Positions 23,651 through 64,000 of a stretch of 64,000 bases of DNA are shown piece after piece. Numbering within the stretch: position 1 is the stretch's first letter; each line of letters opens with the position of its first letter. Source of the DNA: Pseudomonadota bacterium (GTDB lineage Bacteria > Pseudomonadota > Alphaproteobacteria > Rhodospirillales > Magnetospirillaceae); the NCBI GenBank assembly GCA_021847015.1, contig JAJZVW010000018.1:2860-66859 (forward strand), given 5' to 3'. A program made the position numbers and the translations under genes. The notes beneath the pieces are model-generated. The model saw only the letters and a program-made list of their open reading frames with translations, made no database searches and was not told the DNA's origin.

Positions 23651-24709
23651 ATGATGTCGAACGAAAGCATCCGGCCGCCGGCGGTGGTGGCGGTCTTCAA
23701 CCACAAGGGCGGAGTGGCCAAGACCACCACCGCCACCAACATCGCGGTCTGTCTCGCCGCCCGCGGTTGGCGCGTGGTGCTGATCGACCTCGACCCGCAG
23801 GGCAACGCCACGGCGGGATTCGGCCACACGCGGCTGCCCCCGGTCGGGGCGCTGGACGTGGTCGCCGGACGCTGCGGGTTCGCGGAATGCCTTCTGCCCA
23901 CACCTTTCGCCGACCTTCGGCTTCTGCCCGCGACCGAGGCCCTGCGCATGGCCGAACTGGAGCTGGCCGGCGACGAAACCGCCGTCCAATTGCTGCGCGA
24001 CCACCTGCGCGAGGGAGAGGCCATCGGTCTGGCCGACATGGTGGTGATCGATTGCCCGCCGTCCTTCGGCATGGTGACCCTGAACGCCCTGTACGCCGCG
24101 ACGGCGGTACTGCTCCCCACCCGGCCCGACCCTTATGCCCACGACGGATTGCTGAACAGCTGGTACGAAATCAAACGGCTCCGGCAGGAGGCCGAGGCCG
24201 ACGTGCATGTGGCCGGCATCCTTCTGACCATGACCGAGGAGCGGGGCCCCCTGGCCGACGGAGCCCAAGCCATCCGAGCCGAATTCGGCCAGCAGGTTTA
24301 CCCCACCCACATTCCCGGCGATGTCGCCGTGGCGGAAGCGGCGCAGCTTTCCCTGCCCGTCGTCGTCCTGGACCCCGATGGCGGCGCGGGACGCGCCTAC
24401 GTGGCCGTTACCGCCGAACTGCTGGCGCGCTTGCATGGAGACGATGGGCACGCGGACGATTCCGCCACGGATGCCACGCTCAACACGTTGCGGGAGTGGC
24501 GCGCGGAGTGGATTTCCCAGGAGCGCATCCCCAAACAGCGACTCGGCTGGATCGACGCCGAGCCGTCCGCCTCGCCGTCGGCGCCGTCGGCGGCAGCGGC
24601 GCCCGGGCGGTCCCGGTCCGCCAGCCGCCTGATGCTGGGATTGGCGTTTTCGATCGGCGCCATTCTCGGCGTCATCGTCGGCGCGGCCGTGCGTGGGGAA
24701 TTGATGTGA
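23651..24709 (+). CDS. ParA/MinD-family ATPase with C-terminal extension and predicted TM helix
   Basis: Deviant Walker A NHKGGVAKTT, then LIDLDPQGNAT and VVIDCPPS. A ~100-aa C-terminal tail ends in LMLGLAFSIGAILGVIVGAAV. Confidence 0.85.
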   Translation: MMSNESIRPPAVVAVFNHKGGVAKTTTATNIAVCLAARGWRVVLIDLDPQGNATAGFGHTRLPPVGALDVVAGRCGFAECLLPTPFADLRLLPATEALRMAELELAGDETAVQLLRDHLREGEAIGLADMVVIDCPPSFGMVTLNALYAATAVLLPTRPDPYAHDGLLNSWYEIKRLRQEAEADVHVAGILLTMTEERGPLADGAQAIRAEFGQQVYPTHIPGDVAVAEAAQLSLPVVVLDPDGGAGRAYVAVTAELLARLHGDDGHADDSATDATLNTLREWRAEWISQERIPKQRLGWIDAEPSASPSAPSAAAAPGRSRSASRLMLGLAFSIGAILGVIVGAAVRGELM

Positions 24710-24885: not shown

Positions 24886-25059
24886 ATGGAAAACGACGCC
24901 CGAAATATCGTGTGGCGGTTCCGGCACGACCGGCAAGGCGCCGTCGCCATCGAATACGCGCTGATCGCCGTGCTGATAGCGGTCGCCATCATCGGCGCCG
25001 TCACTGCTTTGGGCGGCAACGTTTCGAATCTGTTCAACTTGGTCGTTTCCCAAATTTGA
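24886..25059 (+). CDS. flp: Flp/Fap-family pilin (copy 1)
   Basis: 57 aa: MENDARNIVWRFRHDRQGAVAIEYALIAVLIAVAIIGAVTALGGNVSNLFNLVVSQI. Contains the Flp motif G/AxAIEYxLI and a hydrophobic helix. Confidence 0.9.
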   Translation: MENDARNIVWRFRHDRQGAVAIEYALIAVLIAVAIIGAVTALGGNVSNLFNLVVSQI

Positions 25060-25115: not shown

Positions 25116-25574
25116 GTGAGCAAGTCATACTTCGACATCGTCAGACTGATCGAGCGCCTGCACCGGCACTTCCTCGACGTCCTCCGGGCCGAGCTTCGAC
25201 ACCGCGGGACCGAGGAGGTCAACGCCGTCCAGGCCCTTCTTCTTTACAATATCGGCGAAAACGAAGTCGTGATCCGCGATTTGAAGGACCGCGGCTATTA
25301 CCAGGGATCGAATGTTTCCTACAACATCAAGTCCCTCACCGAGTCGGGCTACCTCATGCAGGAACGTTCCCCCCACGACCGCCGGTCGGTGCGCCTCAAG
25401 CTCACCGATAAGGGAATGGACCTGTGCAACGCCATCCGCGCCCTTCAGGACGAACTGGCGGCCACCATCGGCGCCGAGATGAACGGTCAGTTGGAAAGCA
25501 CGGTCGCCACCATGCAGCGGCTGGAACGCACCTGGACCGACTTCATTCACTACGGACGGCCCCGGGCCCCGTGA
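25116..25574 (+). CDS. MarR-type winged-helix transcriptional regulator
   Basis: NAVQALLLYNIGENEVVIRDLKDRGYYQGSNVSYNIKSLTESGYLMQERSPHDRRSVRLKLTDKG is the MarR wHTH pattern. GTG start. Confidence 0.8.
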   Translation: MSKSYFDIVRLIERLHRHFLDVLRAELRHRGTEEVNAVQALLLYNIGENEVVIRDLKDRGYYQGSNVSYNIKSLTESGYLMQERSPHDRRSVRLKLTDKGMDLCNAIRALQDELAATIGAEMNGQLESTVATMQRLERTWTDFIHYGRPRAP

Positions 25575-26520
25575 TCGGCGTGTTGTCGGGACAGGCGTTG
25601 CGGTAACCGATCCCGACCGTTTCGCTTGGCGCGAAATCGCCCCCCGGCGGATCGCCGACGGTGATGCTTCCACGATAGGGCAGGTGCGGCCAGCTTATGC
25701 CGTTTCCCCGCCGAACCGCGCCGATGCGCAGCAGCGACGCCTTGGGCCAGACGGTGTATTCCTGCGCCGCCTGGCCCGGTCGCTCGGTGGCGTAGACGTG
25801 ATCGAGGGCGATCGGGAACGGCTTCTCCAAAATCGAATCCAGGAACCAGTACTGGTAGGTATAGCGGTCCACGGGCTGGCCGTCGGTGTAGCGGATGTTG
25901 ACGTTTTCGAGATCGGCCGACCGGGTGGCGTGCTGCGGTGGAATGAAGAGCCCCTCGTAACCTGTGGTGCCGCTGACGTTGTAGAAGCGCAGGCGCCCGA
26001 CATCCCCCTGGGTCTGCACCATGTCGCCGTGAACGCCCATCCTGTGGCCCGAGATGTTGACGATCCGCGTATTCTGCACGGTAAGGTCGGCGTGGCGGCC
26101 CGGGGCGCTGTAAATGTCGATTCCGTCCCGCTCGCCGGCATCCGCGTTGTCGATCAGCGCTCCTTCGACGTGGACCGCGCCGGAAACGCCGGCGAAATAC
26201 AGTGTCCCTGTGGCCGGTCCCTGCGGCCGGTATTCCCCCCCCAGCACGACGATGTTACGCCCGCCCTCGGTTTGCAGCCGCCGCAGTGTTCGCGGCGTGG
26301 AGGCCCCCAGGAACACCACGTCCTGATCGGGCTCGAAGTGCCACCAGTCGCGGTCCCCGGTCTTGTCGAGGTCGATAATCGTCGGGTTTTTCAACTTCGG
26401 AAACGGCCATTTCATCTGGCAGGCGGGTGGCGGACGGTCTCCCGCCTCGGGCGGCGCCCCAGCGGCGGCGGCGGTCAGCGTCAGCATGCATGCGGCGGGG
26501 ATGGCGAAGCGTGCGGTCAT
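25543..26520 (-). CDS. Exported single-module protein of an unassigned (beta-helix-like) domain family; paralog of the modules in 61663..>64000
   Basis: Sec-type signal MTARFAIPAACMLTLTAAAAGAPP. The body aligns block by block with the modules of the giant gene: NPTIIDLDKTG, QDVVFLGAS, GGRNIVVLGGEY, VEGALIDNADAGERDGIDI, VQNTRIVNISG, HGDMVQTQGDVG, TTGYEGLFIPPQ, VWPK, ISWPHLPYRGSITVGD. Lies directly downstream of the TadE-like genes on the same strand. Confidence 0.85.
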   Translation of the reverse strand: MTARFAIPAACMLTLTAAAAGAPPEAGDRPPPACQMKWPFPKLKNPTIIDLDKTGDRDWWHFEPDQDVVFLGASTPRTLRRLQTEGGRNIVVLGGEYRPQGPATGTLYFAGVSGAVHVEGALIDNADAGERDGIDIYSAPGRHADLTVQNTRIVNISGHRMGVHGDMVQTQGDVGRLRFYNVSGTTGYEGLFIPPQHATRSADLENVNIRYTDGQPVDRYTYQYWFLDSILEKPFPIALDHVYATERPGQAAQEYTVWPKASLLRIGAVRRGNGISWPHLPYRGSITVGDPPGGDFAPSETVGIGYRNACPDNTPITGPGAVRSE

Positions 26521-26592
26521 CGGCGGCCCTCCGCCGGCCATATGGCCCGAGAGGCCCCTGGCGGCGAGAGGACGTGCGGATGAGGCGGCCGG

Positions 26593-26979
26593 TTACCGGG
26601 GAAATTCCGAAAGGGCCGAAAGGGTGATGGGACCGAAAGGAAGCAGCGACGGCACCAGGAAGTCGAAGGTATAGGTCGCCGACACCGACACCTGGGAGGC
26701 GGTGGAAGCGACGGTGAATGCGACGTTGGCCGGAGGAATCCCGATCAGTTCGGCTTGGGCTTGCGCGATGACGACGCTGTTGCTTGCCGTGGAATGGGCG
26801 AGCGCATAACGCGTCGCTTCCTCGCAGGCGAATTGCAGCATGGACCTGTCCCACATCGCGCGCCCGAACTCGACGGTACCGAGGATGAACAGAAGGAACA
26901 CCGGCAACAGCAGCGCGAACTCGACCGCGACGTTTCCACGGTCGCACCGGCTGAGGTTTCGGCCTTCGCTCACCCCCAC
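26593..26979 (-). CDS. TadE/TadF-like pseudopilin
   Basis: N-terminal TadE motif RGNVAVEFALLLPVFLLFILGTVEFGRAMW. Confidence 0.85.
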   Translation of the reverse strand: MGVSEGRNLSRCDRGNVAVEFALLLPVFLLFILGTVEFGRAMWDRSMLQFACEEATRYALAHSTASNSVVIAQAQAELIGIPPANVAFTVASTASQVSVSATYTFDFLVPSLLPFGPITLSALSEFPR

Positions 26980-26988
26980 CCTGCCCTC

Positions 26989-27468
26989 CTATTGCGTCCG
27001 CAGGCTGGCGCTGGCGCTGAGCGCCACGGAATTGCCGATACCCGGATATGTCACGAGCAAGGCGTAGTTTTCGGCGACGGTCACGGTGACATAGGTCCAC
27101 GGCGCGGATGTCGGGCAGGTGCCACCGCAGGTGATGGTCGATCCGTCGTTGCAGCCGCAACTCAGCGTCACGGAGACGGTCCCGGAATTCAGCCCGTTGG
27201 CCGCGGCAAGGGTGGCTTGGCGCGTGCCCGCGGAATCGGTCGGGTTCCCCATGGCGTATTGGGCGCCGGCCCGTGCCGCGCTGGTCAGGCGCATACGCTC
27301 GTTGGTCGCCATGCCGAAATCGGCGAGGCCCAGGACAAGCACCAAAAGAATCGGTGCCGCCAGCGCGAATTCCACCGCCGCCACGCCGCGCCGGCAGGCC
27401 GCCAACCGGACAAGAGGGGCTCGACTCACGATTGCACCCTCTTCGATCCCTGGCTGCTCCGTGCCCAC
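26989..27468 (-). CDS. tadE: TadE-like pseudopilin
   Basis: RRGVAAVEFALAAPILLVLVLGLADFG. The first ~13 codons of the track ORF overlap REP copy B, so a GTG start at 27429 is plausible. Confidence 0.85.
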   Translation of the reverse strand: MGTEQPGIEEGAIVSRAPLVRLAACRRGVAAVEFALAAPILLVLVLGLADFGMATNERMRLTSAARAGAQYAMGNPTDSAGTRQATLAAANGLNSGTVSVTLSCGCNDGSTITCGGTCPTSAPWTYVTVTVAENYALLVTYPGIGNSVALSASASLRTQ

Positions 27469-27589: not shown

Positions 27590-28840
27590 CTATTCCACCA
27601 GGGCCAGGCTCATGTTCGTGATCGGTCTTGTCCCGCTCCCGCTGCAATTGTTCGGCAAATTGGCGTTGTTGTTGAAGATCACACGACGGCCAATCACCTG
27701 GACGCAGCCGTTGGCGTTGCTTGTACCATTATTGTCCATTTCCACGGCTTGGTTTGGGAAATAGACCGCGCCGGTGATATTCAGAACGGCGTTGTTGGAA
27801 AAGACCTGGGTCACCGACGAATCGCCGTTTCTATCGCCGCAGAACGCAAGACCTTGATAATTTCCCGATGTCGGCGCCGTGATGTTCATAACGGCGTTGT
27901 TGCCGACATCGATGGCGTAATTCCCGACGACGACGATCGTCACCCCACTGGTGGCGTTCAGCACGGCATTGTTCTGAAACGAAAACTGGTTCTGAACGTA
28001 ATAGGTTCCCGGCGCCATGTTGACGGTGGCGTTATTCGAGAAATTAAGACCGCTACAGAAATTCCCCGGGGTAAGGTTGATCGTCACGTTGTTCTTGCCC
28101 GACGACGTTTGGCCCGTGCAGGAGGGAAGGGTCGGGGTGGTCACCGCCGCATACGGGTCGTCAAAAACGGCGTGCGTCGTGACGGGACTATCGATCTCGC
28201 CGTTGTTGCCCATGTAATAACTGGATCCTCCCACGCCCACCGCCCCCGAAATGTGGGCGTTGTTGTCGACGACCAGGCCGTTGGGGTCCGTTGAACGCGA
28301 GGCGGCGCCGCAATTGGCGTTGGGCAGGGTGGCATTGTTGTTGAGATAGACCGTGTCGGGCGCCGACGTGTCCAGGCCCAACACGCAATACTGGCCGTTC
28401 CCCTGCGCCTGCGTCGCCACCGCCCGCGCATGCACCGTCAGAGACCCGAGGAAGAGACGGGAGAACAAGAGACCCTGAGGCTGCGAGATATCGACCTCGA
28501 CGGCGTTGGAGTCCCCCGTATAGGCCCCCGATATCGGCGGATTGTAGACGGTCACCGTGGCGCCGCTGGCCGTCGAATAACCGTTGCGCTGGGCGTCGTA
28601 GACCGCCGCCGCCTTGTAATCCGTCAACCCGTCCATGATCTCCCTGGCGCCCGAAAGGGCCCCGGCATCGGCGGCGGTCTGCATGGCCCGCCGGGCCGCG
28701 AACCACAATCCGGTTTCGACGCCGAGCGACACCATGCCGATCACTATCGGCAGGGTGAGGGCGAGAATGACCGCCACCACCCCCCGACGGTCGTCCCGAA
28801 GCCGTGCCAGAAACCGAATCACGCCGGCGCGACGTCCCAT
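27590..28840 (-). CDS. tadG: TadG-like pilus assembly protein / large pseudopilin
   Basis: N-terminal TadE/G motif RRGVVAVILALTLPIVIGMVSLGVETG. The remainder is rich in NNA-type repeats (NNATLPN, NNAHISG, NNATVNM, NNAVLNA, NNAVMNI, NNAVLNI, NNANLPN). Confidence 0.85.
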   Translation of the reverse strand: MGRRAGVIRFLARLRDDRRGVVAVILALTLPIVIGMVSLGVETGLWFAARRAMQTAADAGALSGAREIMDGLTDYKAAAVYDAQRNGYSTASGATVTVYNPPISGAYTGDSNAVEVDISQPQGLLFSRLFLGSLTVHARAVATQAQGNGQYCVLGLDTSAPDTVYLNNNATLPNANCGAASRSTDPNGLVVDNNAHISGAVGVGGSSYYMGNNGEIDSPVTTHAVFDDPYAAVTTPTLPSCTGQTSSGKNNVTINLTPGNFCSGLNFSNNATVNMAPGTYYVQNQFSFQNNAVLNATSGVTIVVVGNYAIDVGNNAVMNITAPTSGNYQGLAFCGDRNGDSSVTQVFSNNAVLNITGAVYFPNQAVEMDNNGTSNANGCVQVIGRRVIFNNNANLPNNCSGSGTRPITNMSLALVE

Positions 28841-28849
28841 GATCGTCCC

Positions 28850-29335
28850 CTATTTTCCGTTGCCGCCGCCCTTGTCGGCGACCGCGTCGGCCACTTTTTC
28901 GCACGTGACCGCGCCGCACAGGTAGGTCTGGCTGACGCCGCCGTTCTTGGCCTGCTTGCCCCCGGCGAAGGTCACCGACACCGCGCGGTCCCCGCTGACC
29001 CCGACCACTACGGGCACATCCACGAGGAAATTGCCGTCGCCGTCCATGACCGACAGCGATGTTCCGCCCGTTTGCTTGCCGAAGACGATGAGAACCCTTG
29101 GGCTCTCAACCGAGACGTCGGCCACCGAGGGATCGCCGACGATCACGCGCTTGGCCGGGTGGCTCAGCCGGATCACCGTCGCCCCACCCACCCTGACGTC
29201 GATGGCCCCGCTCGCCGCTTCGGCCGAAACACCGGCGGATACGGCCAAGACCAGCGCCGCCAGCAGGAGGACCCCGGCTGCGGGCCGATCAAGAAACCGG
29301 AGACGAACGAAGTGAAGTGCCGCATTCAACGCCAT
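28850..29335 (-). CDS. Pilus-formation protein with secretin-N-like (T2SS/T3SS pilN-type) domain
   Basis: Signal peptide, then RLSHPAKRVIVGDPSVADVSVESPRVLIVFGKQTGGTSLSVMDGDG, the pattern of pilus assembly N-terminal domains found in cpa loci. Confidence 0.7.
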   Translation of the reverse strand: MALNAALHFVRLRFLDRPAAGVLLLAALVLAVSAGVSAEAASGAIDVRVGGATVIRLSHPAKRVIVGDPSVADVSVESPRVLIVFGKQTGGTSLSVMDGDGNFLVDVPVVVGVSGDRAVSVTFAGGKQAKNGGVSQTYLCGAVTCEKVADAVADKGGGNGK

Positions 29336-29481: not shown

Positions 29482-30261
29482 ATGAAGTTCCCGCGCTCCG
29501 CTTTCGCCGCCACGATCCTGGCGGCATCCTTGTGCGGCTGCGCCGCTGCGAACGACGCCGACGTGGCCAAGGCGGTGGAGCCGTCCTTGCGGATGGCGGC
29601 GTTGACCGCCGAGGCATCCAACGACTACAAGGGCGCCGCCCAACATTGGCAGACTCTTTACCAGCACCATCCCGAGGACAAAGGCATCGCCCTGTCCCTG
29701 GCGCGGGCGTTGCGGTACGGGGGGTCGCCCGCGCAGGGCGCCGACGTCATGCAGGCAAGCCTGGTGCGGTTCGGCCGCGACGCCGACGTCCTCACCGAAC
29801 TGGGCAAGGACTACCTTGCCGACCAGCGCATCCCGCTGGCGCTCAAATACCTGGACGAAGCGCGCACCTTGGCGCCCACGCGCTGGGACATTCCCTCGGC
29901 CATCGGCGTAAGCCTGGACAGCCAGCGCCGGTTCGCCGACGCGGCCGCCGCCTACGCGCAGGCACTGACGCTGTCGCCCGACAACCCCGAAATCCTCAAC
30001 AATCTCGGTCTTTCCCAGGCGCTGTCGGGCAAGCTCGACGACGGCATCGCCACGCTGCGCCATGCCAACGACCAACCGGCGGCCGACGCCCAGGTCCGGC
30101 AGAACCTGGCCATGCTGTTGGCCTTGAAGGGCGATGCCGAGGATGCCGAAGCTCTGGCGCGCCACGACCTGCCGCCCGACCTGGCGCGCGCCAACAGCCA
30201 AATCTTCCACGACCTGGCCAAGGCGGTCGGCCATCCCGCCCCCCCGGCCGACGGGGGATGA
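29482..30261 (+). CDS. tadD: TPR-repeat lipoprotein, TadD-like
   Basis: Lipobox AASLCGCAA and several TPR-like repeats (AAAYAQALTLSPDNPEILNNLGLSQALSG). Confidence 0.8.
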   Translation: MKFPRSAFAATILAASLCGCAAANDADVAKAVEPSLRMAALTAEASNDYKGAAQHWQTLYQHHPEDKGIALSLARALRYGGSPAQGADVMQASLVRFGRDADVLTELGKDYLADQRIPLALKYLDEARTLAPTRWDIPSAIGVSLDSQRRFADAAAAYAQALTLSPDNPEILNNLGLSQALSGKLDDGIATLRHANDQPAADAQVRQNLAMLLALKGDAEDAEALARHDLPPDLARANSQIFHDLAKAVGHPAPPADGG

Positions 30262-30463: not shown

Positions 30464-31423
30464 TCACTTCATATGGGAGATTTGCAGCGCTGCCGGCGTG
30501 ATGATGACGATGAACAGCACCGGCAGGAAAAAAATGATCATCGGCACGGTCAACTTGGCGGGAAGCGCCGCCGCCTTCTTTTCCGCCGCCGCCATCCGGC
30601 TTTCGCGATTTTCGGTGGCCAGCACGCGCAGCGCCTGACTGACCGGGGTGCCGTATTTTTCCGCCTGGACCAGTGCCGTGGCCAGGGACTTGACCTGGGG
30701 CAGGCCGGTGCGATCGGCGAAATTGTCCCAGGCCAGCCGGCGCTCGCTCAAGAAGGCGAGTTCGGCGGCGGTCAATCCGATCTCCTCGGCCATCTCCGGA
30801 GAACTCTCGCCGATTTCCTCGGTCACGCGGACCAGCGCCGCCTCGACCGAAAGTCCCGCTTCCACGCAGATGACCATCAGGTCGAGCGTATCGGGAAAGG
30901 CGCGTGCCAGGGCCTTCTGGCGCTTCTGGACCGCGTTGGTCAACAAAATCTGGGGAAGATAGGTCCCCAGCACCAACCCAATCACCACCAGCAGGACCTT
31001 CGTGGTGAAAGACAACGTCTCCAGCACCGACGAGGCATACACCAGCGCCAGCGCCAACAGCACCACCGGGGAGGCCACGCGGGCGAAGGTGTAGGTCACG
31101 GCCGCGCTCTGGTGGCGCCATCCGGCCTGCGCCAGCTTCACCTTCAGTTCCTTGGCCTCCAGCAGGGCCTGGAGGTTCAACCGGTTTAGGGCCGCGCGCA
31201 TCAGACCGACATGCCGCTGCGGCTGGCTGCGGCGCGCGGGCTTCAGGTTTTCCCGCTGGCGCGCCGACAATTCCTCGCGACGCGCGGACACGGCTTTCAT
31301 GCGGCTGGCCAGGTGATTGCGCTGCATCAACGGCAGGCCAAGCGCCAACACCGACGCGAACGCGGCGACTGCGGCAATGACGACAATCAGCGAGGAGAGA
31401 TTCACGGCCGCCCCTTCCCTCAC
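30464..31423 (-). CDS. tadC: Type II secretion system F-family inner-membrane platform protein TadC
   Basis: 319 aa with a T2SSF-type domain. ATGA-type overlap with the tadB stop. Confidence 0.9.
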   Translation of the reverse strand: MREGAAVNLSSLIVVIAAVAAFASVLALGLPLMQRNHLASRMKAVSARREELSARQRENLKPARRSQPQRHVGLMRAALNRLNLQALLEAKELKVKLAQAGWRHQSAAVTYTFARVASPVVLLALALVYASSVLETLSFTTKVLLVVIGLVLGTYLPQILLTNAVQKRQKALARAFPDTLDLMVICVEAGLSVEAALVRVTEEIGESSPEMAEEIGLTAAELAFLSERRLAWDNFADRTGLPQVKSLATALVQAEKYGTPVSQALRVLATENRESRMAAAEKKAAALPAKLTVPMIIFFLPVLFIVIITPAALQISHMK

Positions 31424-32418
31424 ATATCGAAGTTGATCATCTGGCGCATGACCAGGATTCCGGCCCCCATCACCGAAATTCCGATGCCCACCATCAAATG
31501 GCCGGTGCTGGTGGTGAAGAGGAGGCCGATGTAATCGGGTGCGACCACGGACAGCAACAGGGCGACGGCGATCGGCAGGGACCCGATGATGCCCGCGGAT
31601 GCCTTGGCCTCGCTGGAATAGGCTTTGACCTTGTCGCGCATGCGCTTGCGCGCGCGCAGGACCTCGGAGAGCTTGGCCAAGGTCTCGGCGAGATTGCCGC
31701 CCGTCTGCTGCTGGATGGTGAGCACGATGGCGAAGAATCTCAGTTCGGCCGTGGGCATGCGTTCGACCGCGCGCTCCAAGGCATCCTGGAGGGTAAGCCC
31801 CAGCTTCTGCCCTTCGGCGATGAGACGGAATTCGGCCCCCAGCGGGTCGTCCATCTCACGGCCGATGATGTTGATGCATTCGCCCAGCGGCAAACCCGAA
31901 CGGATGCCGCGCACCACCACGTCCAGCGCGTCCGCGAACAGGCCGGTGAACTTCGCCAGCCGCCGTTTGGCCAGGATCGACACCACCAGTTTCGGCAGCC
32001 CGATCCCGATCAGGACCGCCGCCAGCGGAATGCCGACGGGGGGAAGCGGGCTCAAGGCGTAGAGCAGACCCGCCAGCAGCGTGCCCACGGCGTTGCCGGC
32101 CAGGTAATGGGGCACCTCGATGCGCAGGCCCGCCTGCATCAATTCGTCGCGCAGCCGCGACCGGCCTTTCTTGGCCCGGCTTTCGTCCACCTGCTTGAGG
32201 CGGTTCTGGATGGCGCGGCGCTTCAGCATGGCGCCCGCCCGCACCGGCTTGGACCTGTCCGGTCCGGCGCCGGCGACACTCGCCAGCCGCCGCTTCAATC
32301 GGGCGCGCGGACCGTGAAGAAGGGCGTAAAGCGTCCATCCGAACAGGCCGAGGGCGGCGAACAGCACCAGCACGAACGCCACGACCCCGGCCGGCAGACG
32401 GGAGAGTGCGTCAAGCAT
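31420..32418 (-). CDS. tadB: Type II secretion system F-family inner-membrane platform protein TadB
   Basis: 332 aa with a T2SSF domain. Overlaps the cpaF stop. Confidence 0.9.
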   Translation of the reverse strand: MLDALSRLPAGVVAFVLVLFAALGLFGWTLYALLHGPRARLKRRLASVAGAGPDRSKPVRAGAMLKRRAIQNRLKQVDESRAKKGRSRLRDELMQAGLRIEVPHYLAGNAVGTLLAGLLYALSPLPPVGIPLAAVLIGIGLPKLVVSILAKRRLAKFTGLFADALDVVVRGIRSGLPLGECINIIGREMDDPLGAEFRLIAEGQKLGLTLQDALERAVERMPTAELRFFAIVLTIQQQTGGNLAETLAKLSEVLRARKRMRDKVKAYSSEAKASAGIIGSLPIAVALLLSVVAPDYIGLLFTTSTGHLMVGIGISVMGAGILVMRQMINFDM

Positions 32419-33823
32419 GGCTTTCCGCCAAGGCCTCGGCCAGTTCGCGTTCGAGGCCGAAATAGCGCGCCCTGTCCCAGAAGCCGGGGCGCAAGCCCGT
32501 GGAGCGATGGCGGCCGATGATGCGGCCCGCGGGATCCTCTCCCTGAAATTCGAAGACGAACAGGTCCTGCAGGGTGATGACGTCCCCTTCCATCCCCACC
32601 ACCTCGGTGATGTGGGTGATCTTGCGGCTGCCGTCGCGCAGGCGCGATGCCTGGACGATCACATTCACCGCCGACGCGATCTGCTCGCGCACGGCCTTGG
32701 CCGGAAGGTTATATCCGCCCATCGCCACCATGTTCTCGACACGCGATAGGGCGTCGCGCGGAGTGTTGGCGTGGATGGTGCCCATGGAACCGTCGTGGCC
32801 GGTGTTCATGGCTTGCAGAAGGTCGAACGCCTCCGGGCCGCGCACCTCGCCGACGATGATCCGCTCGGGACGCATGCGCAGGCAGTTGCGGACGAGGTCG
32901 CGCATGGTCACCGACCCAGCGCCTTCCAGATTGGGCGGGCGGGTTTCGAGGCGCACAACATGGGGCTGCTGCAATTGCAGTTCGGCGGCATCCTCGCAGG
33001 TGATGATGCGTTCGCCGGAATCGATGTAGCGGGTGAGGCAGTTGAGAAGCGTCGTCTTGCCCGAACCGGTGCCGCCCGAGATGAGGACGTTGATCCGGCA
33101 GGCGCCGATCACCTCCAGCACCTTCGCGCCCGCCGGCGTGATCGAGCCGAACTCCACCAGCTTCCCCAAGGTCAGCTTTTCCCGCTTGAACTTGCGGATG
33201 GTAAGGGTCGGGCCGTCCAGTGCCAGCGGCGGAGCGATGACGTTGACGCGCGATCCGTCGCCGAGGCGCGCGTCGCAGATGGGGCTCGCCTCGTCCACCC
33301 GCCGGCCGACCGCCGAAACGATGCGCTGGCAGATGTTCATCAGTTGCGCATTGTCCCGGAACTTGATGTCCGTGAGGAGGATCTTGCCGTCGGTCTCGAT
33401 GTAGACCTTCTCGGCGCCGTTGACCATGATGTCGGCGATGTCGTCGCGGGCGACCAGGGGCTCCAGCGGTCCCAGGCCCAGAACATCGTTGCAGATGTCG
33501 GCGATGACCACCTGCTGCTCGGCCGCCGACAGCACGATGTTCCGCATGCTGATGATCTCGGCGACGATGTCCGAGATTTCCTCGCGCACCTGGGCGGCGT
33601 CGAGTTTGCCCAATTCGGTGGGATCGACCGAATCGATCAGGTCGTTGAAGATTGAGACCTTGATGTCCGACAGGCGGTCATCGGCAGCGTTCACCCCGCT
33701 CTCGGCGGATGGCGCCGGTGCTGCCGCGGGCATTTCCGGCGTCCCGCCTTGCCCGCCCGCGGACGGGCGCATCGGCGGTTTGGGGGCGGCGGGCGGCGGG
33801 GGAGCGCTTCGACGGCCGAACAT
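32411..33823 (-). CDS. cpaF: CpaF/TadA pilus assembly ATPase (VirB11/T2SS-E family)
   Basis: Walker A GGTGSGKTTLLN, Asp box, Walker B IIVGEVRG and His box TGHDGSMGTIHAN. Confidence 0.95.
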   Translation of the reverse strand: MFGRRSAPPPPAAPKPPMRPSAGGQGGTPEMPAAAPAPSAESGVNAADDRLSDIKVSIFNDLIDSVDPTELGKLDAAQVREEISDIVAEIISMRNIVLSAAEQQVVIADICNDVLGLGPLEPLVARDDIADIMVNGAEKVYIETDGKILLTDIKFRDNAQLMNICQRIVSAVGRRVDEASPICDARLGDGSRVNVIAPPLALDGPTLTIRKFKREKLTLGKLVEFGSITPAGAKVLEVIGACRINVLISGGTGSGKTTLLNCLTRYIDSGERIITCEDAAELQLQQPHVVRLETRPPNLEGAGSVTMRDLVRNCLRMRPERIIVGEVRGPEAFDLLQAMNTGHDGSMGTIHANTPRDALSRVENMVAMGGYNLPAKAVREQIASAVNVIVQASRLRDGSRKITHITEVVGMEGDVITLQDLFVFEFQGEDPAGRIIGRHRSTGLRPGFWDRARYFGLERELAEALAESHA

Positions 33824-33845
33824 TCCGGGTTCGCCTCCGCCGGCC

Positions 33846-35057
33846 TTATTTCTTCAACCACGCCAACAGGCTCTGGGCGTTGATCGACGCCCCAAAGCCC
33901 GACTTGGCGGCCGGCTTCTTCGCCGCCGGAGCGCGTCCCAGGAGTTGGACGGCGAACTCGCCCAGCAACTCGACGACCTTATGGGTCTTGGCCGTCTCGC
34001 CCAGCATCTGCCCATTGTTGGCCGCCAATCCGAACAGCGCCGGATCGAACGGAAGCTTCAGGGCGGGCGGAAGACCGAGGTGCTCCGCGAAATCCCGGGG
34101 CGACAATTCGGTCTTCCGGGACGCGTCGCACCGGTTGAGCACCAGCCGGATGGCGTCGCCGCGCTTTCCGGCCAACGCCTCGACCAGAGCCTTGGTGTCG
34201 CGCAGGCAGACGAGGTCGGGAACGGCAACCGCCAGCACTTCGTCGGCCGCCGCCAGCAGATGTCCTGTCCAGACGTCCCACAGATGCGGCAGATCGACGA
34301 CCACCGCCGGAGCCATGCGCAACGCCAGTTCCAGGAGCTTGTCCAGCGCCTCGACGCCGATGGGCTGGGCCGCGCGCGGGTTTCCGGGCGAACTCAGCAC
34401 CTGCAAATGGTCGTCGTAGGCCACCAGGAACCGCTCCAGCAGCACCTGATCGAGCCGCTCGGGATTGCCCAGGGCATCGGCGACGGTCTGCTTGGTGTCG
34501 ATGTTGAAGGCCAGCCCCGATGTCCCGAAGGCGATGTCGAGATCGATATAGATGACGTCTTCCCGCGTCGCCCGCGCCGTTTCCCAGGCGATGTTCTGAG
34601 CCAGCGTGGATGCCCCCACCCCGCCGCGCACCCCCCACACGGCCACCAGCCTGCCCTTCCTGGGAGCCGAGGGATCGTCGAAGATCGCGCCCAGCACCGA
34701 CGCCACCTGGCGCGGCGTCACCGGGGACAGCAGGTAATCGCTCACGCCCCGCGCCAGGAGAGTCCGATAAAGGCCGATGTCGTTGAGCTTGCCGACCACC
34801 ACCACCCGGGTTCCCGGTTCGCAGACCTCGGCCAGATGGTCGATCCGCGCGAGCAGGGTGGCGTCGTCATCCTCTTCCTCGACGAGGATGACCTGGGGGG
34901 TAGGCTTGTCCGCGTAATGCCCGACGGCGGCGGCCAAACCGCCGGGAAAGACATTGACGCGCGATTTGGCAAAGACCCGGTCGTCGCGGATAGCCTTGAA
35001 GACGTCCGCCACATCCGGCGTCAATGCGAAGGCATCGATGGAGACACCGTAGATCAC
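33846..35057 (-). CDS. cpaE: CpaE/TadZ pilus assembly protein (receiver-like N-domain plus MinD/ParA-like ATPase domain)
   Basis: Atypical Walker A VWGVRGGVGASTLAQNIAW, in the conserved position between cpaD and cpaF. Confidence 0.9.
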   Translation of the reverse strand: MIYGVSIDAFALTPDVADVFKAIRDDRVFAKSRVNVFPGGLAAAVGHYADKPTPQVILVEEEDDDATLLARIDHLAEVCEPGTRVVVVGKLNDIGLYRTLLARGVSDYLLSPVTPRQVASVLGAIFDDPSAPRKGRLVAVWGVRGGVGASTLAQNIAWETARATREDVIYIDLDIAFGTSGLAFNIDTKQTVADALGNPERLDQVLLERFLVAYDDHLQVLSSPGNPRAAQPIGVEALDKLLELALRMAPAVVVDLPHLWDVWTGHLLAAADEVLAVAVPDLVCLRDTKALVEALAGKRGDAIRLVLNRCDASRKTELSPRDFAEHLGLPPALKLPFDPALFGLAANNGQMLGETAKTHKVVELLGEFAVQLLGRAPAAKKPAAKSGFGASINAQSLLAWLKK

Positions 35058-35069
35058 CAGCCTTCTCCG

Positions 35070-35861
35070 TCACTGTCCGCTGCCGCTGCCGACGTTCGAA
35101 ATGTTCGATGAGCCGCCCGCCTCTTTCGCCGAGCCGGTCGCGACGCCCCTGCCGTACTTGTCCAGCACGTCCGCGGATCGGCTGCCCTCGCGCCCGGAGG
35201 ATTCCCGCATGCGCACCAGATCCGCGGGGTCCTGAACCATCAGGCCGATATTGCGCTGGGTCGCGCAGCCGAAATTGGGGCTGCTGCCGTTCTGCCAATC
35301 CGGGGTGGGCTGGGTGTCGAAATTGCCGCATTCCGGGATTTCCGCCACCCAGACCGGGGCCTCGACCAGGGCGGTGTCCGGCCGTTGCGCGGTGCCCGCC
35401 GCCACCACGACCTTCACGTCGGCCGGCGGCACGCGGATGGCGGCGGCCACCCGTTCCCCGAACGCCTGCGCGGCCGCCTTGGCATCGGCACCGCCCGACG
35501 ACGGCGCCACCGTGACGGTAACCGGGCCCGACCCCCGCCGCAGATGGTCCTTGCCGATCTGCTCAAGCGCCATGGCGTCCTGGGCCGAGAACGGCCTGCC
35601 CGCTTCGGGCTGCGTGACCACGGCGACGGCCGTGTGATTGGCGACACCCACCGGATAATGTTGCCGGTAGTCCTGCTCGGCGAGATCGGCGCTGGAACAG
35701 GCCGCGACTCCCACCAGAAGCGCGGCGACCGCCAGCGCCCCTGCCGCCATCCGGGCCCGGCGCGAACACGCAGACCGATCGTCCACACACCGTGCCTCAA
35801 CCACCCCCTGCTTGCGCTTGGGATGCCGGCGGAAGAGCGTAGGAACGCGGCGTCTCGACAT
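35070..35861 (-). CDS. cpaD: CpaD-like pilus biogenesis lipoprotein
   Basis: Lipobox LLVGVAACSS and a C-terminal conserved Cys pair (IPECGNF...NFGCATQRNIG) typical of CpaD. The start is uncertain (35861 or 35750). The track start 35972 would overlap cpaC. Confidence 0.8.
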   Translation of the reverse strand: MSRRRVPTLFRRHPKRKQGVVEARCVDDRSACSRRARMAAGALAVAALLVGVAACSSADLAEQDYRQHYPVGVANHTAVAVVTQPEAGRPFSAQDAMALEQIGKDHLRRGSGPVTVTVAPSSGGADAKAAAQAFGERVAAAIRVPPADVKVVVAAGTAQRPDTALVEAPVWVAEIPECGNFDTQPTPDWQNGSSPNFGCATQRNIGLMVQDPADLVRMRESSGREGSRSADVLDKYGRGVATGSAKEAGGSSNISNVGSGSGQ

Positions 35862-35874
35862 GGCGGCGATCCCT

Positions 35875-37389
35875 CTAATGAACGATGTAGCCGATGGGGC
35901 CCTGGAGTTGGGCGGGTGTCGCCGGCAGCTCGCGGGAATGGATATAGGTCGCCTGGAGCCGGCCGAGCACATAGCGGTCGAAATCCGACGACGGAGCGAA
36001 GCCGTCGGTCGGAAGCGACATCTGCGGCGCGTTGACGGGCTGCACGACGTAGCTCGACACGATCACCACCAGCTCGCTCTCGTTATGCTGGAAGGAACTG
36101 GAGCGGAACAGCGTGCCGAGCACCGGCACGTCCATCAGGCCCGGCAGGCCGGCCAGCGCCTGGGTAATGTCGTTCTGGAGCAAGCCGGCGATCATGACGG
36201 CGCCGCCCGAGGGCATCTCGACCACGCTGCTGGCGCGGCGCACGGTGAGACCCGGCACGGTCACGCCTTGCCCCACGGGGATGCTGATGGTCTTGTCGAT
36301 GGCGCTCACCTCGGTCTGCAATTTCAGGCTGATCCGTCCGCTGTCGACGACGACCGGCGTGAAGTTGAGGCCGATGCCGAATTGCTTGAATTCGATCGAC
36401 AGGGAGCCGTTCACGGCCGAGACCGGGATCGGGAATTCGCCGCCGGCCAGCATGCTGGCCGTCTCGCCCGAGACCGCGGTGAGGTTCGGTTCCACCAGGG
36501 TTTTCACCAGCCCCTGCTGTTCCAGCATGGTGAACGTGCTCGCCAGCGGGCCGATGCCCGTTATGTTGAGGGCGCCATAGGGATTTATCGACGTCAGCGC
36601 CAGCGCGGACGTCGTGGTGCTCGGCATGGTGCCGATGGCACCGCCCAGGACGTTATTGCCGGTGGCGAAGCTGTTGGGACCGACGTTCAGATTGCCGCCG
36701 AGAGGCGCCGGCACGCCGTGCGGGGTCATCATGGAATCGCTGAACCCAAGCTCCTTCAACGCCGTCTTCTTCATTTCGGCGACCTTCACGTGCAGCAGGA
36801 CCTGCTGCTCGTTGGCGACGCGGAGAAGGTTGACGATGTTGGCGTCGTCCTTGACGAACCGGCGGGCGACCGCGCGGGCGGTGGCCACGGCGTTGTCGGA
36901 GCGCGCGGTGCCGGTGAGGAAGATGCTGTCGCCGATGGCCGACACCTTCACGGCGGTCTCGTCCGGCATCAGTTGCCGCAAGGTGTCCGCCAGGGCTTCG
37001 GAATCCACATGCACGTCCACTTCCGCCCGGCCGATGGTGCGGCCGGCATCGTCGCGGAAAATGATGTTGGTCTGTCCCGGCGCGCGGCCGACCACGTAGA
37101 GTTCGGTCGGCGAGCGGATCACCACGTCGGCGATGTCCGGGTTGCCGACGATGACGTCGCGGGCGGCGGCCGGAAGGTGCAGTTCCGTGGATTTGTTGAC
37201 GGCGACGCCGAGCGGTTCGCCCACCGGCACGTCCGCCGTCCGCAGATTGAGCTCTCGCGGCGGCGCGGCCGCCTTCCCGCCGGCCGTCGGAACCGTGAGG
37301 CTGGTCGGCGGGTTTTGCGCCATTGCCGTCGCGATCGACGCGAGTGCCGCAACCATTGCGATGATGAGTCGTCTTGCCGGCGTGCCCAT
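35875..37389 (-). CDS. cpaC: CpaC/RcpA outer-membrane secretin
   Basis: Signal peptide, BON-like N-domains and a C-terminal secretin domain (GGAVMIAGLLQNDITQALAGLPGLMDVPVLGTLFRS). Confidence 0.95.
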   Translation of the reverse strand: MGTPARRLIIAMVAALASIATAMAQNPPTSLTVPTAGGKAAAPPRELNLRTADVPVGEPLGVAVNKSTELHLPAAARDVIVGNPDIADVVIRSPTELYVVGRAPGQTNIIFRDDAGRTIGRAEVDVHVDSEALADTLRQLMPDETAVKVSAIGDSIFLTGTARSDNAVATARAVARRFVKDDANIVNLLRVANEQQVLLHVKVAEMKKTALKELGFSDSMMTPHGVPAPLGGNLNVGPNSFATGNNVLGGAIGTMPSTTTSALALTSINPYGALNITGIGPLASTFTMLEQQGLVKTLVEPNLTAVSGETASMLAGGEFPIPVSAVNGSLSIEFKQFGIGLNFTPVVVDSGRISLKLQTEVSAIDKTISIPVGQGVTVPGLTVRRASSVVEMPSGGAVMIAGLLQNDITQALAGLPGLMDVPVLGTLFRSSSFQHNESELVVIVSSYVVQPVNAPQMSLPTDGFAPSSDFDRYVLGRLQATYIHSRELPATPAQLQGPIGYIVH

Positions 37390-37390
37390 G

Positions 37391-38275: not shown

Positions 38276-38328
38276 GGAACTGTTCCCCCCTGGCCCCGAT
38301 TAGAGCGACAAACCAATAAAGCGATCCG

Positions 38329-38880
38329 TCACAACCCAACGCCGCGCAAACCCGCTTTCAGCCACCAGTCCAGGCCGCCGGCCGCGATCGCCACCCCATA
38401 GGGCACATGTCCGCTGGCGGTGACACGCCGCTGCCACAGGGTAAGCCATCCCTCGTTAGCGGCCGGTAAACGGCGCAGAAGAAGAACCGATACGGCCAGC
38501 AGCCCGCCCGCCACGGACATCACCGCCAGCAGCCTCGGCAACCCGGCGAACCCGGTCCACAAGGACGCGGCGGCCAAGAGCTTGACGTCGCCCCCGCCCC
38601 AGATTCCGAGGGCGAACAGGGCTGCGCCCGCGATGAACACCAGAACGCATGCGGCACCGTGGCGGAGCGCCACATCCATTCCCACCCCCGACGCAAGGGC
38701 GAAGACCACGAAAGCCGCCAGCAGCGTCACGGACGCGCGATTGGGGATGCGGAACGAGCGAACGTCCGAGACCGCGGCATCCGACAGAGCCAACAGAAAG
38801 ACCGCGCTCGACGCGAAACCCACCATCCGCCGCCCCATCAAAATGAAGGCGCCCCCAGATATCGCCCGGGGACGCCCCAC
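38329..38880 (-). CDS. cpaA: Prepilin peptidase CpaA/TadV (A24 family)
   Basis: Polytopic membrane protein with VSDVRSFRIPN and GGGDVKLLAA (the two catalytic Asp motifs). The exact start is uncertain. Confidence 0.9.
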   Translation of the reverse strand: MGRPRAISGGAFILMGRRMVGFASSAVFLLALSDAAVSDVRSFRIPNRASVTLLAAFVVFALASGVGMDVALRHGAACVLVFIAGAALFALGIWGGGDVKLLAAASLWTGFAGLPRLLAVMSVAGGLLAVSVLLLRRLPAANEGWLTLWQRRVTASGHVPYGVAIAAGGLDWWLKAGLRGVGL

Positions 38881-61662: not shown

Positions 61663-64000
61663 ATGGCGACGAGCAGCACTTCAACCACCGTTACGACGCA
61701 AGCGCCGCTAATGTATGCGCCGCCGACGATGAACAGCCCGACGATCGTCGACCTGGCGAAAACGGGCGGCCAGACGACGTGGAATTTTTCCTCCACCCAG
61801 GATGTCGTCTTCATCGATTCGGCCCATACGGCGCTGAATCTGCCGAGCATCAAGATCCAGGGCGGCCACAACATCGAAGTCCTCGGCATCGACATGAAGA
61901 CGGCTCCCGGCAAGACGGGCGCCCTGATGTTCTATGGCGTGACCGGCACGGCTTATGTTGATGGCGTGCACATCGACAACAGCAAGGCCTCGGGCACCGA
62001 CGGAATCGACATCGCCGGCGGTGCGAAAACCAGCCTGGTGATCCAGAACTCCAGCATCGAGAACGTCAACGGCGCCAAGACGGGCGGACAGGCCGCGGGC
62101 GGCAACGGTCACGCCGACGCGCTTCAGACGCACGGCCCCGTCGGCGGGGAGATCAATCTCTACAACGTGCATATGAGCACGAACTACCAGGGCATCTTCC
62201 TCGCGCCGCAATACGGCAGCACCCCTGGCACCAACGAGCCGTCCGCTCTCAACCTGACGAACGTCGATCTGCACTATACGGGTCCGACCGACAACAACGG
62301 CAATTCGCACAGCTACCTGCTCTGGACCGTCGATGGGCCGAGCGAAAACGCCTATCCCGTGACGTTCAACAACGTCTATGTCGCACCGCGTGCGGGACAG
62401 GACGCCGGAACCCTCGCGGTCTGGCCGACGACGAACGCGGGCCAGACCAACAGCAAGATGGCGGCCCACGAAAGCGGCAACTCCATCACGTGGCCGGGCC
62501 TTCCCTACACGGGCTCGGTGACGGTCGGCGATCACGCGTCCTTCACGGATTCGTCGAAGATCGGCACGAACTTCGCCGACACCCAGGCCATCCTCGACGC
62601 CTCCACCAAGGGGACGCCGGTTGCGACCAACGGCGGTGCCAGCGCGTCGTCCCCGGCCACTCCGCCGCCAAGCGCCACGTCCGCATCCGCGCCCGCGACC
62701 TCGACCGACACCACCCACACCGGCACGTCGGCCACGGATCCCGCCGCCAGCACCGGCTCGTCGTCCGCCACTCACGCGCCGAGCCCCACGGCTCCGTCCG
62801 CGCCCGCATCCACCGCCTCGGCCGACACCACCCACACCGGCACGTCGGCCACGGCCCCCGCCGCCGGCACCGGATCGTCGTCCGCCACTCATTCGGCCGG
62901 CGCCACGGCTCCGTCCACAGCCGCGTCCCCGGCCTCAGCCGATACCACCCACACGGGCACGGCGGCCGCAACGACGTCTGCCTCCCACACCGCCGAGATG
63001 CCGCTCAAGTGGGCGCCGCCGACGATGAACAATCCGACGATCGTCGATCTGGCCAAGACCGGCAGCCAGACCTACTGGAACTTCGCCAACAATCAGGACG
63101 TCATCGTCATCGACTCGGCGCACACGACCGTGAACCTGCCCAAAATCCAGTTCCAGGGCGGGCATAACATCGAGGTTCTCGGCATCGACATGCAGACGGC
63201 TCCCGGCCAGACGGGCGCCATCCAGTTCGACGGCATCACCGGTACGGCCTTCGTCGACGGCGTGCATATCGACAACAGCAAGGCGTCGGGAACGGACGGC
63301 ATCGACATCGCCGGCGGCAACAACGGCAAAGGCGTCAGTCTGATCGTCCAGAACACCAGCATCGAGAACGTCAACGGCGCGTACTCGGGAGGCCAGGCCT
63401 CCAACAGCAACGGACATGCGGACGGGATTCAAATGCAGGGCCCGGTCGGCGGCGCCCTCAACCTGTCCAACGTCCACATCACCACGAACTACGAGGGCCT
63501 CTTCCTCGCGCCGCAATACAGCACCGCGCCGTCCTCGGCGACGTTCAGCAACGTCGATCTGCACTACACCAGCGCGGCGGCGAACGACGGGTCGCACACC
63601 ACCTACCTGCTCTGGACGCTCGACGGCGGGAACGAGAAGCCTTACCCGATCACGTTCGACAACGTCTACGTGCAGCCACGCGCCGGCCAGCAGGCCATCG
63701 AATCGGCCGTGTGGCCCAAGGCGGAAGGCGGCGCCGTCCAGAACGGCGACCAGATCAGCTGGCCCAACCTGCCCTATAAGGGCAGCGTCACGGTCGGCGA
63801 TCACGCCTCGTTCGCCGACACTTCGAAGATCGGGGTGCACTTCGCCGACACCCAGGCCATCATCGACGCTTCCTCCAGCGGGACGTCGGTCGCAACCTCG
63901 GGCGGTTCGAGCGGCCCGGCCGGCAGCGCCTCCGCAACCACCGCCACCGACCCCGGCACGACGACCGGCTCGGCGGCCTCGACCCCGGCCACGGCCGCGC
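61663..64000 (+). CDS. Large modular repeat protein, N-terminal 779 codons (continues beyond right edge; absent from supplied ORF track)
   Basis: Own translation: the ATG at 61663 opens a frame with no stop to 64000. Two ~300-aa modules (nt 61705-62610 and 63001-63880) repeat with a 1296-nt period, and a Thr/Ser/Ala/Pro-rich linker follows each of the two modules. Third-position GC and the in-frame duplication support coding on the plus strand. Minus-strand track ORFs 61708..62892 and 62935..63840 are shadows. Confidence 0.85.
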   Translation, partial: MATSSTSTTVTTQAPLMYAPPTMNSPTIVDLAKTGGQTTWNFSSTQDVVFIDSAHTALNLPSIKIQGGHNIEVLGIDMKTAPGKTGALMFYGVTGTAYVDGVHIDNSKASGTDGIDIAGGAKTSLVIQNSSIENVNGAKTGGQAAGGNGHADALQTHGPVGGEINLYNVHMSTNYQGIFLAPQYGSTPGTNEPSALNLTNVDLHYTGPTDNNGNSHSYLLWTVDGPSENAYPVTFNNVYVAPRAGQDAGTLAVWPTTNAGQTNSKMAAHESGNSITWPGLPYTGSVTVGDHASFTDSSKIGTNFADTQAILDASTKGTPVATNGGASASSPATPPPSATSASAPATSTDTTHTGTSATDPAASTGSSSATHAPSPTAPSAPASTASADTTHTGTSATAPAAGTGSSSATHSAGATAPSTAASPASADTTHTGTAAATTSASHTAEMPLKWAPPTMNNPTIVDLAKTGSQTYWNFANNQDVIVIDSAHTTVNLPKIQFQGGHNIEVLGIDMQTAPGQTGAIQFDGITGTAFVDGVHIDNSKASGTDGIDIAGGNNGKGVSLIVQNTSIENVNGAYSGGQASNSNGHADGIQMQGPVGGALNLSNVHITTNYEGLFLAPQYSTAPSSATFSNVDLHYTSAAANDGSHTTYLLWTLDGGNEKPYPITFDNVYVQPRAGQQAIESAVWPKAEGGAVQNGDQISWPNLPYKGSVTVGDHASFADTSKIGVHFADTQAIIDASSSGTSVATSGGSSGPAGSASATTATDPGTTTGSAASTPATAA
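62707..62975 (+). repeat. 117-bp (39-codon) tandem repeat, ~2.3 copies, inside the linker of the modular protein
   Basis: GACACCACCCACACCGGCACGTCGGCCACGG starts at 62707 and again at 62824. A related GATACCACCCACACGGGCACGGCGGCC starts at 62941. It encodes repeats of ADTTHTGTSAT...GSSSATH...APS. Confidence 0.85.

Follow-up and report, generated by a model that had tools for sequence, protein, structure and literature searches.

The target gene and its place in the tad locus

The window analyzed here, a stretch of 64,000 nucleotides, comes from a 68.6-kb contig of a metagenome-assembled genome (MAG) labeled Magnetospirillum sp. On its minus strand, positions 25543..26520 encode a protein of 325 amino acids, hereafter the target, which consists of a predicted Sec leader, a Pro-rich linker, and one predicted beta-helix module. 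Its coding sequence is contained in the list of open reading frames (ORFs) and is the last gene after a string of pseudopilin genes in a tad pilus locus. What is new at this locus is the family to which the target belongs, with forms fused to carbohydrate-binding modules (CBMs), forms encoded in clusters of type I secretion system (T1SS) and exopolysaccharide (EPS) genes, and forms fused to pseudopilin-like sequence; the pilus association is not the new element.

A preliminary description of this DNA had named a minus-strand protein with a Sec signal at this position, and inspection bears this out. The listed ORF (25543..26541, minus strand) encodes 332 amino acids from an upstream ATG at 26541. 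The ATG at 26520 is the likelier start because a Shine-Dalgarno-like GGAGGG, read from the sequence at 26527..26532 (minus strand), sits 6 nt upstream of it. In L001, a nearly identical metagenome contig, the gene is likewise called from the equivalent of ATG 26520 and yields 325 amino acids, and the deposited counterpart of the target is a 325-residue 'hypothetical protein' of a Magnetospirillum sp. MAG (MDA8233112.1). By inspection, the predicted signal peptide (26461..26520, minus strand) comprises amino acids 1–20, MTARFAIPAACMLTLTAAAA; it has a basic n-region, a hydrophobic core of 16 residues, and an AxA site, with cleavage after AAA and before a Gly. The N-terminus as a whole reads MTARFAIPAACMLTLTAAAA|GAPPEAGDRPPPAC..., in which the leader is followed by the Pro-rich linker, and residues 1–26 are unstructured in the AlphaFold model (pLDDT <50). 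The protein would be exported by the Sec pathway, and any statement about its final location is conditional in the same way. A lipoprotein was considered and rejected on inspection: Cys11 lies too near the N-terminus and is preceded by P-A-A, Cys33 follows P-P-A, and neither forms a lipobox.

The N-terminus of the target is not prepilin-like; a Pfam scan finds no match to PF07811 or PF13400 in it, whereas the four genes upstream match as expected. These four genes, all on the minus strand, begin with a stand-alone pilN-domain protein (28850..29335; PF13629, E 9e-20), which is followed by a TadG-like large pseudopilin (27590..28840; PF13400 and PF09977, named 'pilus assembly protein' by NCBI), TadE-like pseudopilin 1 (26989..27468; PF07811, E 2.9e-13), and TadE-like pseudopilin 2, designated tadE2 (26593..26979; PF07811, E 5.7e-16). 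The target is thus, as the preliminary description held, the last co-directional gene after a pilN-tadG-tadE-tadE string. The spacer between tadE2 and the target (26521..26592) measures 72 nt, or 51 nt if translation starts at ATG 26541. A consensus scan of this spacer found no sigma-70-like promoter on the target strand and no intrinsic terminator. Its GC-rich hairpin (-48 kcal/mol) was rejected as a terminator; it is no better than shuffled sequences (z = -1.47), and a U tract is absent. Co-transcription of the target with the pseudopilin genes is plausible in this organism, since neither an independent promoter nor a terminator was found; the argument is one of spacing.

Downstream, the target converges on a plus-strand gene for a MarR-family regulator (25116..25574; PF13463 and PF12802), which is itself preceded by a gene for a 57-residue Flp pilin (24886..25059, plus strand; identified by its translation and by PF04964 on the identical gene in L001). 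The 3' ends of target and marR overlap by 32 nt (25543–25574). Neither strand can accommodate a terminator here, so that transcriptional interference or antisense effects are possible. The same gene arrangement is found in a second sample (L001), in which the target protein is 99.7% identical. The GC content at third codon positions (GC3) is 0.82, similar to that of neighboring genes, and codon usage appears native. No flanking repeats or traces of mobile elements were found around the gene.

An unnamed family of predicted beta-helix domains

A family profile (A1) was built from the three copies of the domain in the window, target included, and searched exhaustively with HMMER against 1.84 billion representatives. 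The search recovered 935 representatives at E<=1e-3, 560 at E<=1e-10, and 84 at E<=1e-30. The target, itself part of the profile, matched over its full length with E 2.4e-143, and it carries the family signature LxWxPP...GG(H/R)N...(E/D)G..ID...DGI...H.D..Q...YQG...WP. A word-index homology search with the target alone returned itself and one weak match. Scans of family loci were seeded with two subfamily alignments (A3 and A5), a 77-sequence alignment (A2) being too diverse. The domain has no match in Pfam, NCBIfam, PHROGs, or the sequences of the PDB. This holds for the target, which matches nothing in Pfam or NCBIfam; no Pfam family covers the domain in the target or in the 166 family members that were scanned, and PHROGs returned nothing for the target or for the phage-like members.

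The hmmsearch envelope places the domain at amino acids 30–313 (25582..26433, minus strand), where the AlphaFold model reaches pLDDT values of 95–98. The model as a whole (pLDDT 88.5, pTM 0.87; 46-sequence alignment) is all-beta, with short repeating strands. Deepening the alignment had raised its pLDDT from 81.8 to 88.5, and structural matches became no better. Almost all Foldseek matches are right-handed parallel beta-helices, among them alginate lyases of family PL6, pectate lyases of families PL1, PL3, and PL9, members of CE8, GH28, and GH110, and phage tailspikes. For PL6, the best structural match, Foldseek returned E 0.04–0.08 at ~10% identity with template-modeling (TM) scores of 0.35–0.42; there is no PDB-sequence match, and the catalytic residues of PL6 lyases, which have a Ca2+ site and a Lys/Arg pair, cannot be mapped. 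We predict a right-handed beta-helix for the target domain, whose placement in a known beta-helix family is not supported.

Polar residues D67, E119, D132, N150, H164, D166, Q169, Y188, and Q189 are conserved down to ~25% identity, and conserved columns are common to members that are 25–55% identical. The strong conservation of D67, D132, H164, D166, and Q169 in members only ~25% identical suggests an active site. Among the 166 scanned members, the domain is joined to CBM60 (7 members), CBM6 (5), CBM35 types (~5), CBM4_9 (4), CBM96 (2), malectin (2), and dockerin (3) modules; further partners are F5/8-C, laminin-G, and Ig/fn3 modules. RTX repeats accompany the domain in 14 of the 166, and most other family members carry a Sec or Tat leader. 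As judged from sequence, such repeated fusion to carbohydrate-binding modules and dockerins is the build of a catalytic module that is secreted and acts on carbohydrates.

A second gene of the window, at 61663..64000 on the plus strand and running past the window end, encodes two copies of the domain (61690–62598 and 62983–63867). The complete protein (P0003, MDA8233149.1) has 1035 amino acids and exactly two modules, at residues 10–312 and 441–735, together with long low-complexity Thr/Ser/Ala/Pro linkers; it lacks a signal peptide and ends in a ...DHWH tail. The preliminary description had aligned the target along its whole length with each module of a giant protein. The alignments are borne out by BLASTP, with 43% identity over 287 amino acids for module 2 (E 1e-66) and 37% over 292 amino acids for module 1 (E 1e-55), and every motif pair quoted there is present. 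The partner is indeed a two-module homologue, but at 1035 amino acids it is large rather than giant. Likewise, the target is a single-module relative of these modules but not a close paralogue. We rejected the possibility that it is a recent duplicate, as it is 38–44% identical to the 61663 modules versus 50–57% to RTX proteins of other genera. In a neighbor-joining tree, the target lies apart from the 61663 modules, at the base of a clade that RTX proteins of other Rhodospirillaceae form.

The tail of the 61663 protein is shared by other members without a signal peptide. P0003, P0004, P0005, P0006, P0009, P0010, P0159, and P0185 recurrently end in ...DHW(H/N/A/VSM) or ...HHWS, and some family members with such tails have no RTX repeats. 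The tail could be a C-terminal export tag.

Nearest relatives often lie in exopolysaccharide clusters

The closest relatives of the target are RTX 'calcium-binding proteins' of ~630–800 amino acids that are 50–57% identical to it and are found in Magnetospirillum, Skermanella, Telmatospirillum, and other Rhodospirillaceae MAGs. In these proteins the domain begins near residue 8, is not preceded by a leader, and is accompanied by PF00353 and/or PF08548. The target has no PF00353 (C-terminal GGxGxD repeats) and ends 12 amino acids past the domain. It is the only member of the clade with a Sec leader, which replaces T1SS-type export. The closest homologue without RTX repeats, 55% identical and from Telmatospirillum, is encoded between recQ and rsmB.

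The genes for the RTX relatives recur in a cluster with a conserved order: T1SS ABC exporter, HlyD, beta-helix-RTX protein, an unknown protein of 315 amino acids for which no Pfam family was found, Wzc, GT4, GT2, Wzx, and Wzy. Part or all of this cluster (ABC exporter and/or HlyD, or the downstream Wzc-GT4-GT2-Wzx-Wzy genes) accompanies the family gene in 11 of 24 genome loci; most or all of it is present in seven loci, and partial sets of EPS genes occur in two further ones. The cluster-bearing loci from Rhodospirillaceae MAGs are L005, L006, L010, L012, L014, L016, and L017 (for example, L014:6519-20265). Some of the MAG records with the cluster are labeled Bacteroidota or Solirubrobacterales, which is implausible, though the clusters are 58–88% identical at the protein level. 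In a more distant subfamily, Wzc-like genes lie within ~1 kb of family members in metagenome contigs L063, L077, L095, and L100.

Rhizobial glycanases provide a precedent for such a setting. PlyA and PlyB of Rhizobium leguminosarum and ExsH of Sinorhizobium meliloti are secreted through PrsDE and trim the bacterium's own EPS (PMC1403797). The T1SS/EPS context of the relatives together with this precedent leads us to read the family as EPS-processing enzymes, whose activity and substrate we infer. Like the rhizobial enzymes, the nearest relatives of the target combine RTX repeats with the lack of a signal peptide, and their genes stand beside those for an ABC exporter, HlyD, and EPS synthesis. 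The target itself differs: it begins with a Sec leader, lacks RTX repeats, has no T1SS beside it, and resides in a tad operon. The likeness to rhizobial glycanases described here is one of export logic and gene context; ExsH is a GH16 enzyme.

Linkage to tad genes is confined to one lineage

The target is not part of the canonical cpa/tad gene set, in agreement with the preliminary description, which had suggested a survey of whether the domain recurs next to tad genes. It does not. When the 17 proteins of the window's tad region were compared by tblastn with 24 genome loci of the family and their flanks of up to 10 kb, adjacent tad genes were found in none (0/24); the same was true of 79 metagenome loci of the main subfamily, which together span 760 kb (0/79). 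Two distant co-occurrences were noted. In Skermanella aerolata (L008), flp and cpaA lie 9 kb from the homologue behind eight genes on the opposite strand, and in L040 one CpaF-like gene, 35% identical and the sole match in the 79 metagenome loci, lies 7 kb away. We treat both as chance-level rather than real linkage because the genes are not adjacent and, in L008, others intervene.

The converse comparison gave the same answer, as the target gene is absent from all eight orthologous pseudopilin loci that were inspected (TadG 49–67% identical). In L034, the window's order pilN-tadG-tadE-tadE is followed after 25 nt by marR, with no beta-helix gene between them, and in the orthologous loci L031 and L116 a convergent marR directly abuts the pseudopilin genes, again with no beta-helix gene. 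Since marR is the next gene after the pseudopilin string in L031, L034, and L116, the target appears from these sequence comparisons to be a lineage-specific insertion between tadE2 and marR. The pilus linkage thus holds for a single lineage and does not warrant generalization, and we do not take the target to be a conserved component of the pilus, a tip protein, or an adhesin. The preliminary description had argued that chance adjacency would be indicated by an independent promoter or terminator together with a lack of synteny with tad loci; relatives indeed show no tad synteny, but the spacer yielded neither promoter nor terminator.

The order of pseudopilin genes varies among close relatives: the window and L034 have pilN-tadG-tadE-tadE, and L031–L033 and L114 have pilN-tadE-tadE-tadG. 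What stands at the 3' end of the operon is variable as well; orthologues have a DUF6765 gene, crp, an EPS cluster, or genes of a two-component system there.

A distant subfamily carries a pseudopilin-like N-terminus

A distant subfamily of the domain, ~33% identical to the target, combines a TadE/G-like N-terminus (PF13400, 27–28 bits versus a cut-off of 22.3) and a short pilin-like region with a following beta-helix domain. Such fusions are encoded in four contigs (L030:497-1855, L035:6190-7551, L036:205-1566, and L037:179-1543), across which they are 67–83% identical. The calls of a pseudopilin N-terminus are those of Pfam PF13400; a home-made hidden Markov model of TadG N-termini detected no family member, P0062 included. 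None of the four fusion genes lies in a tad locus. Their neighbors are genes for an ABC exporter, a GH16-cadherin-RTX protein, Wzy_C, and methyltransferases. In L035, the fusion adjoins the ABC exporter and the GH16-cadherin-RTX protein, and in L030 and L037 it is followed ~1 kb downstream by a second paralogue, which has a signal peptide and adjoins a Wzy_C gene.

Tad tips bearing variable functional domains have been described (PMC12075869; PMC13533445). It is tempting to take the fusion as a Rosetta-stone-type hint that the enzyme could be presented on a Tad-type filament. In this respect the distant subfamily resembles large minor pilins of the TadG/CpaL/KilN type with their variable C-terminal domains. 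Unlike those proteins, the fusions are encoded outside tad loci, and the target has no pilin-like N-terminus.

Proposed function of the target

With moderate confidence, we consider the target to be an exported, EPS-active beta-helix enzyme of an unnamed family that was recruited in one lineage to the tail of a pseudopilin operon. This assignment is favored because of the predicted beta-helix fold, the CBM fusions of relatives, and the position of the nearest relatives inside EPS clusters. The enzyme is predicted to be a glycanase, a lyase or, less likely, an epimerase; its activity and its substrate would be those suggested by the relatives. The preliminary description had offered an adhesin, a tip protein, and a matrix-active enzyme as possible roles. 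A matrix-active enzyme fits the fold, the CBM fusions, and the EPS clusters best, but a dedicated role in the pilus does not accord with the absence of adjacent tad genes from the 103 family loci compared, the absence of the target from the eight orthologous pseudopilin loci inspected, and an N-terminus that is not prepilin-like.

The following sequence of events is proposed. The RTX relatives would be exported by the neighboring T1SS, and polysaccharide of the cell that makes them is most likely what they would trim or modify. In the Magnetospirillum lineage of the window, one copy may have dropped its RTX tail, acquired a Sec leader, and landed behind the last pseudopilin gene, in the space that separates tadE2 from the convergent marR-flp pair. 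Transcripts that start at the pseudopilin promoter probably read through into it. An activity that cuts matrix or capsule would thereby be produced together with the Flp pilus, and it might, for instance, remove polysaccharide where the pilus emerges or where it attaches.

Several points weigh against this interpretation. Structural similarity to known beta-helices is low: the best Foldseek E values are 0.04–0.08, none reaches 1e-3, TM scores are 0.35–0.44 for PDB entries and at most 0.53 for viral models, and the fold matches among the viral models of BFVD are as weak as those in the PDB. No known catalytic constellation could be mapped onto the target, and an activity has been demonstrated for none of the family members. 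Beta-helix proteins can be non-enzymatic binders or adhesins, and PfbA is among the Foldseek matches. A Sec-exported protein in a diderm bacterium halts in the periplasm unless another system takes over, and the target, unlike its T1SS-exported relatives, has no identified system for passage through the outer membrane. Co-transcription with the pseudopilin genes is deduced from spacing. Finally, tblastn with the cluster proteins of L014, including the ABC exporter and HlyD, found no EPS cluster like that of the relatives in the window.

Among the alternatives, the one that survives best, although we consider it unlikely, is that the gene is a functionally unrelated passenger that landed by chance between convergent transcription units, is silent or driven by a weak promoter of its own, and plays no role in the pilus. 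In its favor, the insertion is confined to this lineage, the genes at the 3' ends of orthologous pseudopilin operons vary as described above, and the Telmatospirillum homologue lies between recQ and rsmB. A passenger is harder to reconcile with an intact gene that has native GC3, a good Shine-Dalgarno sequence, and a 99.7% identical copy in another sample; moreover, a 72-nt gap without a terminator makes read-through from tadE2 hard to avoid.

More doubtful still is the possibility that the target is a Tad-dependent cargo or tip-docked enzyme. According to this model, the protein is exported by Sec, its Pro-rich N-terminus binds a TadE/TadE/TadG tip, and it leaves the cell through the CpaC secretin for display at the tip or release, making it a type IVc counterpart of TcpF and CofJ. 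The position of the gene directly 3' of minor-pilin genes, with which it is probably co-transcribed, is in keeping with this, as is the fact that the target alone in its clade has a Sec leader in place of T1SS-type export; because of that replacement, it would need another outer-membrane route to act outside the cell. To our knowledge, there is no precedent for the secretion of soluble cargo by a Tad system. In type IVb pili, the secretion of operon-encoded, Sec-dependent proteins through minor-pilin binding is established (PMC9565799, PMC6048534, PMC10120004), and variable functional domains are known on Tad tips (PMC12075869). The fusion of the domain to a TadE/G-like N-terminus (PF13400) in four related contigs would, by the same reasoning, be another way in which other lineages reach the same end. 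Yet these fusions are only ~33% identical to the target and lie outside tad loci, and the target's own subfamily has no link to pili: adjacent tad genes occur in 0 of 103 family loci, and the target is missing from eight of eight orthologous tad loci. Nor does it share sequence similarity with TcpF or CofJ, as a search of PDB sequences returned zero matches. If the model were true, enzyme delivery would join adhesion and sensing among the known functions of Tad pili. With the target, a Tad pilus would for the first time be credited with an enzyme cargo or 'enzymatic tip', and TcpF and CofJ would have a type IVc parallel.

Least probable is a non-catalytic beta-helix protein, periplasmic or at the cell surface, that binds a glycan or surface without cutting it: the beta-helix adhesins PfbA and Fap2 are among the weak Foldseek matches, no catalytic motif of a known CAZy family was recognized in the target, and its gene sits in an adhesion-related operon, but the repeated CBM and dockerin fusions typify catalytic rather than binding modules, the conservation of D67, D132, H164, D166, and Q169 suggests an active site, and the target has no motif for anchoring at the cell surface.

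The assignment as an EPS-active enzyme bears on more than this locus. The family comprises ~1000 unannotated clusters at 50% identity with a carbohydrate-active architecture, and it recurs in EPS clusters; one characterized member would name a new enzyme family relevant to biofilm-matrix turnover. The target is a convenient first member to study, since it is small, soluble, and easily expressed.

Comparison with known systems

In its predicted fold, the target weakly resembles PL6 alginate/chondroitin lyases, PL1/PL3/PL9 pectate lyases, GH28 enzymes, and phage tailspike depolymerases, and other members of its family share with these enzymes the habit of fusion to CBMs and dockerins. It differs from those beta-helix enzymes in that no similarity is better than E 0.04, no Pfam beta-helix family matches, no relative exists among PDB sequences, and catalytic residues cannot be mapped.

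AlgE-type mannuronan C5-epimerases of Azotobacter combine a beta-helix A-module with RTX R-modules. The nearest relatives of the target are built alike, with an N-terminal beta-helix, no signal peptide, C-terminal RTX repeats, and a secreted polysaccharide as substrate, which for the relatives is a prediction. However, AlgE structures are absent from the top 50 Foldseek matches of the target, and the AlgE motif YG(F/I)DPH(D/E) differs from the target's conserved motif H-x-D-x-x-Q.

TcpF of the toxin-coregulated pilus (TCP) in Vibrio cholerae and CofJ of the CFA/III pilus of enterotoxigenic Escherichia coli (ETEC) are soluble proteins with a Sec leader that are encoded in a pilus operon beside a minor pilin, to which a flexible N-terminus docks (PMC9565799, PMC6048534, PMC10120004). 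The target shares with them its location in a pilus operon and, by inspection, a Sec leader. It differs in pilus class (IVb versus Tad/IVc) and has no sequence or fold similarity to either protein. Whereas the linkage of gene and pilus is conserved for TcpF and CofJ, it is not for the target.

Other features of the tad locus

Beyond the pseudopilin genes, the locus contains a complete cpa/tad set on the minus strand (cpaA, cpaB, the cpaC secretin, cpaD, cpaE, cpaF, tadB, and tadC; 30464–38880) and a TPR/TadD-like gene on the plus strand (29482–30261). The flp gene is not part of the main cpa operon; it is encoded on the other strand, with a gene for a ParA/MinD-like ATPase (23651–24709) on one side and marR (25116–25574) on the other. 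Convergent marR genes recur beside pseudopilin genes in L031 (together with flp), L034, and L116, which makes MarR a candidate regulator of the pilus. A gene for a Crp/FNR-type regulator (39366–40055) adjoins cpaA; crp genes are also found 3' of tadG in L033 and of the tadE pair in L115. An EAL-domain protein of 828 amino acids is encoded near the tad locus (45684–48170), and together with the Crp/FNR-type regulator it could feed cyclic-nucleotide signals into the locus.

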